From a phage, in assembly GCA_014750165.1 (NCBI GenBank), contig GCA_014750165.1_4319.1: a stretch of DNA of 45,917 nt, one strand, 5' to 3'. The stretch's first letter is position 1. Each line of letters opens with the position of its first letter. Below are positions 12,773 to 36,215 of the stretch, piece by piece. The translations under genes were made by a program, and so were the position numbers. Below the pieces are notes generated by a model. That model did not search any database. It was not told the origin of the DNA and worked only from the letters and a program-made list of their open reading frames with translations.

Positions 12773-13742
12773 AGTAGAAGTTTGGAATAAATGGAAGTGC
12801 CATTGATATATTTGTGTCAAAAGGAAACTGAGCGCCTGTCTGAGTTGAGTAGTTACCTATTACAGATCCAGGAACAGCCCTAACGGAGCCACCAGACATA
12901 CAAACTCCCTTGTATCGTAAGTTGTTATACCCTCCGGTAACTCTAGTCGTAGCGCCGCACCTAAGTAGCGGGAAGAAACCACCATTTATTGACTGATATC
13001 CATTGCTTATTTGTATAAATCCACCAAGAACGAATGGTCGTCTAACGCTTGAAAAAACAATCTGACCAGAACTATTTGACATTGTGAGCCCTGGTCCTGC
13101 TGGTGGCGGTTCATTCCTGAATATCACTAACTGAACGTAAGTGCTTGCCGCCACGTCATCTATGCCACCATAGTTTACATCACGGCACCATATTGTACTA
13201 CCATCACTCTCCAGCGACACATTTGGGTTATCCCACTTACCAAATGGTATTCCGCTAACCGGTAGCGATGCTGCCCCGTTAACCTGTATTCCTCCAACCC
13301 ATGCTGCTGACATTAGTCTCGAGTTGCTTGATATGGCAAGGAAATCAGTTGAGTTCTCAACGAGTATGCCTGGACTTGATGAAGATGAAGCCGGTAGTAT
13401 CTCAAAGCAATTACCAGCAAAGTCAATTATTCTACCATTAGCACCATTGAAGTTGCTGAGCGTTATCCTGCCAGTTCCGTCATTTACCTTTTGAAACCCG
13501 TTCATGTAATAAACTTCGGGTATAACATCGTAAGCGTCAACGTGGACTGCCTTCGTTGGTAGGCAGAAAGCCGTAGAACCAGGTGACATTGTCAATCCAA
13601 AATCCCACGATATTGCTGGTGTTGAAAGTCCATTGGTATTTATTGATCCAGTCACAGCAGGTGCCCTTAATCCTGCCGTGATTTCCATCGCTGGTCTTCC
13701 GTCATTGAGGTCAATCAATATACCCTGCGGCATTATTTCCAC
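12771..13742 (-). CDS. putative tail fibre / receptor-binding protein
   Basis: 323 aa Gly/Ser/Asn-rich protein convergent with J; composition and position only. Confidence 0.35.
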
Positions 13743-13978
13743 TCCTTACTGCCGTGATCTGCAACAGAACCGCCGTAACCTCCGCCAGCTTTACTTTCAA
13801 TGCCAGCGTATCGAATATCAACCTCACCAGCAGGAACAACTACACCGCCTTTCCACTTAGCTACGCACACGCCGTTTGCTTGCGTTGCACACCAACCGTC
13901 CGGTCGAGGACCAGAAGAACAACCAACTGCCATGATTACTGCCGCTGCGATGATTGCTGATTTGATTAAGTTAGTCAT
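13733..13978 (-). CDS. small lipoprotein, Cor-like superinfection exclusion candidate
   Basis: Signal peptide with lipobox (IMAVGC); 81 aa; located next to tail fibre genes as cor is in T1/phi80-type phages; own upstream cassette. Confidence 0.45.
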
Positions 13979-14044: not shown

Positions 14045-14065
14045 TTTAGCAATTAGTGCTATTCG
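14045..14065 (-). promoter_or_regulatory. gene-boundary palindrome cassette (minus orientation), upstream of cor-like gene
   Basis: Reverse complement reads GAATAGCACTAATTGCTAAA then CGCAAGG..TGCG hairpin, TACTAT, CATCGAAACGA; also supplies stop of the MTase-like gene. Confidence 0.5.
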
Positions 14066-14735
14066 CCAAAAATACAGCTCTTGCAAATCCACGAGGTGTA
14101 AGACTGCGAATTACCTTTGTTTTCTTGCTCTTCCCGCCTAGCTTCTTGTGCTGGTCTGAGTATCCATCATTAACGTCAACTGGTGAGGCATGAGGCCATT
14201 TAAACCCATTGCCAGACCAAATGCACGTCTTCTTAGGATATGCGTCTCTTGGCTTTATTAGGTCGCTAAAAAACGGGTGTAAATCATCTTCCGGCAAATA
14301 GCCTCCGTATTCGTAAGGGTGAAACGTGTTATCAGGTTTACGCCAGAGCGATGACAGCACGCTGACTGGGTTCTCAATCATGTATGGAACTCCGTATTTT
14401 TCAGCCAGTTTAAAAGCAACCTTGCAAGTCTCTGCCGCCTCAATTTGGAAGTTTTGGTTGGCTAGGCGCTTACGCTCAAAGTGTGCTGCCCCGCTCACGG
14501 CTAAATCCGTACAGGGCGGGAATGCCATGATAAAATCAGGCTTCACATCAAAATCAAAACTGGAATCTATCCAGGCGTTAACGTATGTAATGTTCTCATG
14601 TTCAACTCTTGCGTTTAAGTAGCTATAGCTCCCGTGGTCAGACTCATCAAAGTTGAAGCAGTAGCAAGTGTGACCAGCTTCAGCCCAATCCTTCACAGCT
14701 AGACCAGAACCATCAAATAAAGACCAGATAACTAT
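14046..14735 (-). CDS. DNA C5-cytosine methyltransferase-like protein (divergent)
   Basis: Motif IV-like FPPCT and motif VI-like IENP in track ORF 14046..14696; motif I-like SLFDGSG is encoded in the same frame just upstream (to stop at 14754-14756), where no ATG/GTG/TTG exists; 14735 is a candidate ATA start 7 nt after GAGGA. Confidence 0.5.
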   Translation of the reverse strand: MVIWSLFDGSGLAVKDWAEAGHTCYCFNFDESDHGSYSYLNARVEHENITYVNAWIDSSFDFDVKPDFIMAFPPCTDLAVSGAAHFERKRLANQNFQIEAAETCKVAFKLAEKYGVPYMIENPVSVLSSLWRKPDNTFHPYEYGGYLPEDDLHPFFSDLIKPRDAYPKKTCIWSGNGFKWPHASPVDVNDGYSDQHKKLGGKSKKTKVIRSLTPRGFARAVFLANSTNC

Positions 14736-14791
14736 TTTTAAATCCTCGTTAGTTTAAGTGCGGCGATTATACCGCACAGAATTTATTGTTC

Positions 14792-14810
14792 TTTAGCAAT
14801 TCGTGCTATT
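14792..14810 (-). promoter_or_regulatory. gene-boundary palindrome cassette (minus orientation), upstream of MTase-like gene
   Basis: Reverse complement AAATAGCACGAATTGCTAAAG; downstream TGCGG-TATAAT-CGCCGCA inverted repeat; overlaps Rha gene stop. Confidence 0.5.
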
Positions 14811-15453
14811 TCTTTTCCAGCAGCAGCTTGATGTCAATGCCGAGATTATTCTCAATCAATCCGGTCAGCGCATCATTCTTTTCTTTAAGGGCGAAGCATT
14901 GGGCTTCATATTTAAATCTCTCCTCCATCTCATCCGATCGACTAACCCAACATTGTCTAGCCTCACAAGCCAGCATATCGAGCTTTTCATCGGTATTCTT
15001 ATCCATGAGTAAAATCTCATTTATTCTTTGCTCTGCAACAATTCGCTGGCTCAGGTGTGCATTTTGCGCATTAGCCACACCAAGCATCATTCGAGCCTCT
15101 TTTAACTCATCAATGCTTACCATCTGGCTGATTACTTCTGCTTGCTTTTTAACTAATGCCTCCAGCTCATGAAGTCGACGGATTACTTTGTGTCGAAGCA
15201 CGACACTGTAGCCAGTGATTAGCGTTTCAGTGAGTTCCTTGTTGAGTAAAATCTCAGATGTATAGCCTCGATTGTCTGTAAGTAGTTGATAATCATCATG
15301 CCCCAAATCTGGGGCATCGTTATAATGTAACAATTCATTGATCATTTCCTTTGTGTCGCGAACGACGTGATCATGACGTTTGCCGGTTAACTCTGCGATT
15401 TCCTTTGTGCTCATCATGGTTTTTGGTTGTTCTTTGTACGCTTTAATGTTCAT
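14806..15453 (-). CDS. Rha-family phage regulatory protein
   Basis: STKEIAELTGKRHDHVVRDTKEM matches Rha-domain signature; start set at internal ATG 15453 (MNIKAYKEQ...) rather than track start 15534. Confidence 0.55.
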   Translation of the reverse strand: MNIKAYKEQPKTMMSTKEIAELTGKRHDHVVRDTKEMINELLHYNDAPDLGHDDYQLLTDNRGYTSEILLNKELTETLITGYSVVLRHKVIRRLHELEALVKKQAEVISQMVSIDELKEARMMLGVANAQNAHLSQRIVAEQRINEILLMDKNTDEKLDMLACEARQCWVSRSDEMEERFKYEAQCFALKEKNDALTGLIENNLGIDIKLLLEKK

Positions 15454-15548
15454 TTTAATCTCTCTATATGTTTTGACTTCGAAAATTTCGTATTCAAGCA
15501 GCACCATTGCCGCCATGAGCCTAAATATACCCAAAGATACCCAGTTGT

Positions 15549-29893: not shown

Positions 29894-29950
29894 TCCGAGC
29901 GGTGATAATGTATCATTCTTTTACTAACTTAAACATTGACAAATACATAA

Positions 29951-30178
29951 ATGGAGGATCACATGAGGGAAGTAATCAACGCTGCTACTGCGTCAACTGG
30001 CGGTGCTGCGGTAACTGGCGCAGCAACTGGTCAAATGACTATAGCAATAATCAGCCTCATCGCTCTTATTATTTTTGGTGTCTGGGGCGCTTACTGGAAG
30101 TTCAAAGATAGCCAGGCGATTCGTCGAGCACTTGAATCTGGCGACCTAAAAACAGCAATAAAGATAAGGAGTAAGTAA
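29951..30178 (+). CDS. holin (putative)
   Basis: 75 aa with one strongly hydrophobic segment (MTIAIISLIALIIFGVWGAYW) and charged C-terminus; immediately upstream of endolysin; start may be ATG 29963. Confidence 0.55.
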   Translation: MEDHMREVINAATASTGGAAVTGAATGQMTIAIISLIALIIFGVWGAYWKFKDSQAIRRALESGDLKTAIKIRSK

Positions 30179-35987: not shown

Positions 35988-36215
35988 ATGCTTATAAAAT
36001 GCGTGTATGCAAGGCAAGCCAATCACCACAACCTTTCAGTTGTAAATGGTGGGATATACTCGGCAAAGCCAATCACTCGCTTTAATGGCTCATACTACAT
36101 CAAGGTTGATGGCAATGAGTACATGGTGAAGACGATAGGTGAAGCTCTTATGATAAAAAGCCTTGGCGTCATAATGGCTAAATTCGAAATCTTTCACAAT
36201 AGCACTAATTGCTAA
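35988..36215 (+). CDS. hypothetical protein
   Basis: 75 aa; C-terminal NSTNC-stop supplied by palindrome element. Confidence 0.35.
   Translation: MLIKCVYARQANHHNLSVVNGGIYSAKPITRFNGSYYIKVDGNEYMVKTIGEALMIKSLGVIMAKFEIFHNSTNC

Follow-up and report, generated by a model that had tools for sequence, protein, structure and literature searches.

A Dcm-like C5-cytosine methyltransferase gene of a T1-like coliphage carries an apparently private ATG-to-ATA change at its start codon

How can a C5-cytosine methyltransferase gene be translated when its catalytic motif I is encoded upstream of every canonical start codon in its frame? This question was raised by the initial annotation of a stretch of phage DNA of 45,917 nucleotides (NCBI GenBank assembly GCA_014750165.1, contig GCA_014750165.1_4319.1), the whole of which is called the window in this report. 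Two answers had been offered, that is, translation may begin at a non-canonical codon, or the start codon may have been lost. We analyzed the locus by comparing it with related phage sequences.

Translation of the minus strand gave an open frame at 14756..14046, which runs from the TAA at 14756..14754 to the TAA at 14048..14046. Directly after the first stop, the frame reads TNEDLKIVIWSLFDGSGLAVKDW, and it continues through FPPCTDLAVSG and YMIENPVSV to STNC in front of the second stop. The frame translation also gives LKIVIWSLFDGSGLAVKDW ahead of the same two segments and RSLTPRGFARAVFLANSTNC behind them. The peptide SLFDGSG of motif I corresponds to codons 5-11 (14723..14703, with the FDGSG core at 14717..14703), and the first canonical in-frame start, GTG 14696, is codon 14. 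Thus, motif I does lie upstream of the first canonical start, and the FPPCT and IENP that had been noticed in the frame are both present, with PPCT at 14519..14508 and ENP at 14375..14367. The elements of the start region are as follows.

14046..14735, minus strand: Dcm-like C5-cytosine methyltransferase gene, full ancestral frame of 229 codons plus the TAA at 14048..14046; codon 1 is ATA, not ATG
14733..14735, minus strand: ATA codon at the ancestral start position; G>A at 14733 relative to ATG (plus strand: C>T)
14743..14747, minus strand: Shine-Dalgarno sequence GAGGA, found by direct reading; a 7-nt spacer, TTTAAAA, leads to the ATA at 14735..14733
14694..14696, minus strand: GTG, first in-frame canonical start (codon 14), located after motif I; its product has 216 aa and lacks beta-1 and motif I
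14766..14771, minus strand: TATAAT hexamer in the 70-nt spacer 3' of the Rha-family gene, kept in BEK3 and AugustePiccard

The 216-aa ORF from GTG 14696 is the choice of automatic gene callers, including the Logan gene call. By direct reading, no Shine-Dalgarno-like sequence was found ahead of this GTG. The 70-nt spacer between the stop codon of the Rha-family gene (14808..14806) and the ATA contains no ATG, and GTG or TTG occurs near the gene only out of frame. Translational coupling or a frameshift from the upstream ORF was therefore rejected, because the spacer offers no usable alternative start. As for transcription, the TATAAT at 14766..14771 may be a candidate -10 element, or the methyltransferase gene may share a transcript with the Rha-family gene. 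The TATAAT is 22 nt away from the closest hexamer that resembles a -35 element, TTGCTA, and a scan with the sigma-70 consensus called no promoter 5' of the methyltransferase gene. A 6-bp inverted repeat, GTGCGG/CCGCAC, surrounds the conserved TATAAT at 14758..14777, and a scan called it a plus-strand terminator. No compensatory changes were found for this stem in BEK3 or AugustePiccard.

Next to be considered is which codon the relatives use. The nearest GenBank genomes are those of the Braunvirinae (Drexlerviridae, T1-like) coliphages BEK3/BEK2, AugustePiccard (Bas01) and JeanPiccard (Bas02), together with the so-called 'Campylobacter phage A110b'. The window gene is colinear with the annotated CDS of BEK3, AugustePiccard and JeanPiccard (690 nt vs 690 nt), with no indel and no internal stop. 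In the 5' alignment, the codon aligned with the ATA was ATG in BEK3, AugustePiccard, JeanPiccard and A110b, and each of these ATG codons stands behind an equivalent Shine-Dalgarno sequence; GAGGG, GGGG, GAGGA or TAGGG is found at the same place in the relatives. A search of viral, metagenome and genome collections with the pattern ATNGTTATYTGGTCTTTATTTGATGG, in which the third base was left free, gave four further public contigs, and all four had ATG. Counted over the close relatives, ATG occupied the exactly aligned start codon in 9 of 9. Thus, the ATA that had been singled out 7 nt after GAGGA as the only plausible initiator is at the exact position of the ancestral ATG.

The survey of starts was extended to 45 related loci, with 45% identity as the lowest value. 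Wherever the 5' end was intact, the start codon was ATG, or GTG in three copies, and the first glycine of motif I followed 7-14 codons later. The two exceptions were a 5'-truncated copy (L004) and a frameshifted copy (L048). Since the relatives use ATG or GTG at the ancestral start, the ATA is a private G>A change of this assembly at 14733. We found no ATA allele in other samples when the 216-aa product, the Cor lipoprotein and the Rha-family protein were looked up and three pattern scans were run in public collections; the only record of exactly this GTG product of 216 aa is the Logan contig SRR4953928_212, which has 45,947 bp. A 5mC-deamination hotspot was considered as the origin of the change and was rejected, because the mutated base is outside CCWGG; the plus strand there reads ACCAGATAACTATTT.

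The rest of the gene was then compared. Relative to five aligned relatives, the window has only five private positions, namely the start codon, two synonymous changes, D39Y and K43R, and positions 39 and 43 also vary among homologue sequences. Pairwise omega in the clade was 0.05-0.2, a range that indicates strong purifying selection on these sequences. Because further decay is absent and the clade is under such strong selection, the mutation of the start codon probably arose recently; alternatively, the gene may still be under selection. Of the genes compared with BEK3, 32 were full-length and colinear, and only the methyltransferase gene had a changed start codon, the other 31 being intact.

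To what kind of protein does the frame belong? The profile phrog_757, 'DNA methyltransferase', matched residues 1-227 with E=6.7e-87. At E<=0.001 we obtained 7215 homologues, the best of which had 97% identity; most of them are 225-250 aa long and come from phages of enterobacteria. The homologous 690-nt CDS is annotated as 'Dcm-like C5 cytosine methyltransferase' in Bas01 (AugustePiccard) and Bas02 (JeanPiccard). Pfam PF00145 gave 15 bits against a gathering threshold of 22 and covered residues 3-89 only, that is, motifs I-IV. The NCBIfam search gave no match, and neither phmmer nor profile hmmsearch found anything meaningful among PDB sequences. When E. coli K-12 Dcm was compared with the family profile by hhalign, the probability was 0.26% over 27 columns around the Pro-Cys, which is not significant. 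The term 'Dcm-like' is thus a functional label and does not mean orthology to E. coli Dcm. The motifs are located as follows.

14703..14717, minus strand: motif I, F7-D8-G9-S10-G11, SAM-binding glycine loop, upstream of the first canonical start
14508..14519, minus strand: motif IV, P73-P74-C75-T76, with the catalytic cysteine; no variation at P73, P74 and C75, with T76 in at least 90% of 52 family members
14367..14375, minus strand: motif VI, E121-N122-P123, all three invariant in 52 homologues
14232..14237, minus strand: K167-K168 of the YPKKTC motif, equivalent by alignment to K175/K176 of K42 Dcm; K168 is invariant

In the alignment of 52 homologues, F7, G9, S10 and G11 of motif I were also invariant. 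That is, the core residues of motifs I, IV and VI (F-G-G, Pro-Cys and Glu-Asn) do not vary, and the third residue of motifs IV and VI is Thr and Pro, respectively, throughout the family. Since the 52 homologues show no or hardly any variation at these residues, PCT and ENP are family traits and not private substitutions. An AlphaFold2 model calculated on the 52 homologues had a pLDDT of 88.4 and a pTM of 0.88, and placed beta-1 at residues 2-6, followed by motif I. The best structural matches were ordinary C5-methyltransferases, and Foldseek ranked DNMT3A/3B first. By its predicted fold, the protein is a compact, divergent C5-methyltransferase. DNMT3-type enzymes are also without the Gln of PCQ.

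Among the homologues, the Dcm of KarlJaspers (Bas06) was informative. It matched over the full length with 60% identity (E=6e-100) and has the same PPCT and ENP. The C75, E121 and K167/K168 of the window align with C82, E128 and K175/K176 of KarlJaspers Dcm. In the closely related phage K42, replacement of C82, E128, K175 and K176 of Dcm, all by alanine, abolished activity (bioRxiv 10.1101/2023.08.16.553469); the K42 numbering was checked on KarlJaspers Bas06 only, and the authors of that study give the identity of the K42 and KarlJaspers genomes as 95.4%. K42 Dcm raises C5-methylcytosine in the msDNA of retron Ec86, as measured by LC-MS (bioRxiv 10.1101/2023.08.16.553469). As the family norm, shared with the 5mC-making K42/KarlJaspers Dcm, PCT and ENP thus agree with an ordinary 5mC chemistry. 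For the window enzyme itself, CCWGG specificity and 5mC activity are extrapolated from this 60%-identical homologue and may be presumed by analogy.

What, then, would be the consequence of the ATA start? In E. coli reporters, initiation at AUA and other near-cognate codons reached 1-2% of the AUG level in one system, and other systems gave 0.02-3% (10.1101/063800). The proposed course of events is that a single G>A transition turned the ancestral ATG into ATA in an accessory gene of a Braunvirinae (T1-like) coliphage. With the preserved Shine-Dalgarno sequence and spacing, ribosomes can probably still initiate at the AUA, and a trickle of full-length protein is plausible. At about 0.02-3% of the AUG level, such initiation would amount to a strong knock-down, effectively a near-null allele; we infer this size of the expression loss from the reporters. 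The product from the GTG at codon 14 should not compensate, and we infer from the model that this 216-aa protein would be inactive, because it is without beta-1 and the invariant SAM-binding glycine loop. Taken together, we think with a probability of about 80% that the window carries a private ATG>ATA start mutation in an otherwise intact gene of a known family, and that it is a strong translational knock-down or near-null allele. The copy is a member of the phrog_757 / K42-KarlJaspers Dcm family by descent but probably is not expressed. Of the initial interpretation, the part stating that the start was lost or that translation begins at a non-canonical codon is thus supported, in the form of a point mutation at the aligned ATG; the part stating that the replacement of Gln by Thr in PCQ and of Val by Pro in ENV hints at altered chemistry or specificity is not, since these variants are the family norm and the K42 homologue makes 5mC.

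The surroundings of the gene show how variable this position is. The gene lies between the following two neighbors.

14806..15504, minus strand: Rha-family (Phage_pRha) regulatory protein, upstream neighbor (Pfam PF09669 on the Logan gene call)
13733..13978, minus strand: Cor-like phage lipoprotein of 81 aa, downstream neighbor (Pfam PF24052, Phage_lipoprotein)

The Rha-family gene has 93.7% nucleotide identity to the 'putative DNA-binding protein' gene of BEK3 over the compared span 14806..15453, and in the relatives the product of the Cor-like gene is annotated as a lipoprotein or as a Cor superinfection-exclusion protein. In most related Drexlerviridae, the similarity to the window is confined to the two flanks of the methyltransferase gene. 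A contig of 45,809 bp (L052, 1272..2246; GCA_024854585.1, contig ABHSRV010000025.1) encodes an identical Cor-like lipoprotein, and there the Rha gene is followed by Cor with no methyltransferase gene between them; in comparison with the window, this is a presence/absence polymorphism of the cassette. The contig ABHSRV010000025.1 is phage-sized, and a T1-like phage is thus present inside an NCBI genome assembly. In Escherichia phage vB_EcoS_MM01 (MK373793; L004, 1440..1570), a 5'-truncated remnant remains, with homology from residue 18, and in the record an internal TTG is taken as the start of a 190-aa 'hypothetical protein'. The copy in IMGVR_UViG_3300020047_002884 (L048, 1279..1898) is divided into two reading frames near residue 146, with an N-terminal half of 36% and a C-terminal half of 74% identity. 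Either this gene is a mosaic with a frameshift, or the split is an artefact of the metagenome assembly. From the matches restricted to the flanks, the absence in L052, the remnant in MM01 and the split copy in L048, the methyltransferase gene is clearly dispensable and unstable in nature.

The identity values relative to BEK3 were also uneven. The cassette at 14046..14735 had 97.2% nucleotide identity, with 19 differences, and this was the highest of all colinear genes; the value was 84.6% for 13733..13978, 93.7% for 14806..15453 and 76.6% to 96.6% for the other colinear genes. Because the identity of the cassette exceeds that of every other colinear gene, a recent horizontal exchange of the cassette is suggested by these values. 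The record MG065688.1 (L005), 'Campylobacter phage A110b', is marked UNVERIFIED with Campylobacter jejuni as the host; the phage belongs to Braunvirinae and has 96.5% nucleotide identity to the window gene, and its attribution to a Campylobacter host looks doubtful.

Several other observations were made on the window. A frameshift of the holin gene had been flagged in the comparison with BEK3, and we rejected it as a lesion of the window: it is a 1-nt indel 5' of the real holin start and is due to the long annotation in BEK3. In the compared segments (window 29908..30178, plus strand, vs BEK3 36124..36393), the window ORF starts with the ATG at 29951 or with an ATG 12 nt further, and the BEK3 annotation probably starts too early. 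The window has a single tRNA gene, a tRNA-Arg with the anticodon TCT (reading AGA) at 38659..38736 on the plus strand, which was detected by Rfam with 52.9 bits and also by ARAGORN. GATC occurs at 63 sites in the whole window, compared with 174 expected from base composition and 214 expected from a Markov model, and BEK3, with 68 sites, has the same depletion. A search by tblastn with KarlJaspers Dam found no Dam-like methyltransferase in the window. CCWGG is not depleted in the whole window (76 sites vs 61-90 expected).

A lowered expression of such an enzyme has a known biological context. Retron Ec86 was reported to be triggered by K42 Dcm (Wang et al., bioRxiv 10.1101/2023.08.16.553469), and the CCTGG site of the msDNA stem is needed for the Ec86 defence (bioRxiv 10.1101/2023.08.16.553469). 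Of four phages that escaped Ec86, one had lost 2.2 kb including dcm, one had a frameshift, and two had independent point mutations located 9 bp 5' of the dcm start (10.1101/2023.08.16.553469). In KarlJaspers, we found that the position 9 bp 5' of the dcm start is within the GAGG Shine-Dalgarno sequence. Because the point mutations of the escapers fall in the Shine-Dalgarno sequence, weaker initiation of dcm translation is a demonstrated route past a defence system. The same study described overexpression of K42 Dcm as likely toxic (bioRxiv 10.1101/2023.08.16.553469).

With these data, other explanations of the ATA can be weighed. It might be asked whether the phage has this codon at all, that is, whether the ATA is a sequencing or assembly artefact, or a minority variant in a phage population that has ATG. 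The window is an unpolished automatic assembly from a single run (Logan SRR4953928_212), and no second sample has the ATA allele. On the other hand, the phage was assembled as one 45.9-kb contig, in which the other 31 genes colinear with BEK3 are intact and their starts unchanged. Moreover, real substitutions are common here, as the 19 differences from BEK3 in this gene indicate, and a real mutation is therefore far likelier a priori than an error at 14733. We thus consider an artefact to be quite unlikely. If the ATA is real, it could also be a functional weak start, selected to hold the dose of methyltransferase below the threshold of Dcm sensing or of toxicity while purifying selection continues. 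The intact Shine-Dalgarno sequence with its 7-nt spacing, the measurable initiation at AUA in E. coli (10.1101/063800), the ORF without decay, the likely toxicity of overexpressed K42 Dcm and the evasion of Ec86 by escapers with a weakened Shine-Dalgarno sequence (10.1101/2023.08.16.553469) would all agree with this idea. However, a null mutation of very recent origin would leave the ORF just as intact, and the ATA is conserved in no relative. Because all intact relatives, the 9 of 9 close ones as well as the distant ones, use ATG or GTG, a non-canonical start has had no evolutionary persistence here, and we regard a selected weak start as unlikely.

The remaining two explanations concern the protein. 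The GTG at 14696 is the first in-frame canonical start and is picked by automatic gene callers, and a protein of 216 aa, truncated at its N-terminus, might have a retained or new function. No family member uses this start, and it has no Shine-Dalgarno-like sequence ahead of it; its product would be without beta-1 and the invariant F-x-G-S-G loop, which are the core of the SAM-binding Rossmann fold. Such a protein seems extremely improbable as the answer. It is also very improbable that the enzyme with PCT and ENP has an altered chemistry, such as the transfer of another group or an activity other than that of a methyltransferase. The two sequences are family-wide, the best structural matches were ordinary C5-methyltransferases, and the K42 homologue with PCT and ENP made C5-methylcytosine as determined by LC-MS (10.1101/2023.08.16.553469). 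The private start mutation with strongly lowered translation is thus the reading that we prefer.

If the start mutation is accepted, why was it fixed? The ATA may have been selected as an escape from an immunity system that senses the methyltransferase, for example retron Ec86. The link between the ATA and retron escape is circumstantial and is drawn by analogy with K42. It is possible but rather doubtful, in our opinion, that natural selection for escape, and not drift, lies behind the ATG>ATA change, so that the phage, with its methyltransferase nearly silenced, would evade an alarm of the Ec86/Eco1 type (e.g., in E. coli B strains), and that the intact ORF would be revertible by one base when restriction returns. 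The ATA allele fits a gene under fluctuating selection, and its fixation may also be due to drift or laboratory passage. If the escape explanation is true, then the ATA, together with the truncation in MM01 and the frequent absence of the cassette, would mean recurrent on/off switching in wild Drexlerviridae, and the switched gene would be an anti-restriction function and a defence trigger at once.

For annotation, we suggest an entry as a Dcm-like methyltransferase whose start codon is mutated and which is probably non-functional; an entry as a hypothetical protein of 216 aa, or as an enzyme of unusual chemistry, should be avoided. The enzyme family combines a presumed anti-restriction function with the reported triggering of retron Ec86, and natural off alleles that are reversible by one base would show how phages handle this trade-off outside the laboratory. 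The window phage and its relatives with ATG, such as BEK3, are a ready natural pair for testing it. The wider interest of the finding lies only in its being a possible natural counterpart of the laboratory retron-escape mutants; in other respects, a known accessory gene has undergone an ordinary point mutation.

Finally, we compared the window gene with known systems. The closest is the Dcm of K42/KarlJaspers, which is 60% identical along its whole length and matches the window protein at every residue of PPCT, ENP and KKTC; it comes from phages of the same host range, Drexlerviridae coliphages. In that system, reduced dcm initiation is documented as changing the phenotype through the point mutants of the Shine-Dalgarno sequence. 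The window protein differs in being 7 residues shorter and in its ATA start, compared with ATG, and the dcm gene of KarlJaspers is among the early genes, whereas the window gene lies between the genes of the Rha-family protein and the Cor lipoprotein. Classical C5-methyltransferases (PF00145: M.HhaI, M.HaeIII, DNMT3A/3B and E. coli Dcm) have about 290-470 aa, compared with 229 aa in the window; the window enzyme has Thr in place of Gln after the catalytic Cys and Pro in place of Val after the Glu-Asn, and it is an orphan with no cognate endonuclease gene adjoining.

With respect to the start codon, infC and pcnB have conserved, regulatory near-cognate AUU starts. The window resembles them in having a near-cognate AUN codon behind a good Shine-Dalgarno sequence, which would give low-level initiation. 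In contrast, the codon is conserved in those genes, whereas the ATA of the window is private and absent from every relative. The dcm remnant of MM01 (MK373793) has 89.6% amino acid identity to the window protein over residues 18-229, and the 5' end encoding motif I is likewise gone from it. MM01 lost its promoter region, Shine-Dalgarno sequence, start codon and 17 codons by deletion or replacement, whereas the window gene differs at its start by a single-base change.
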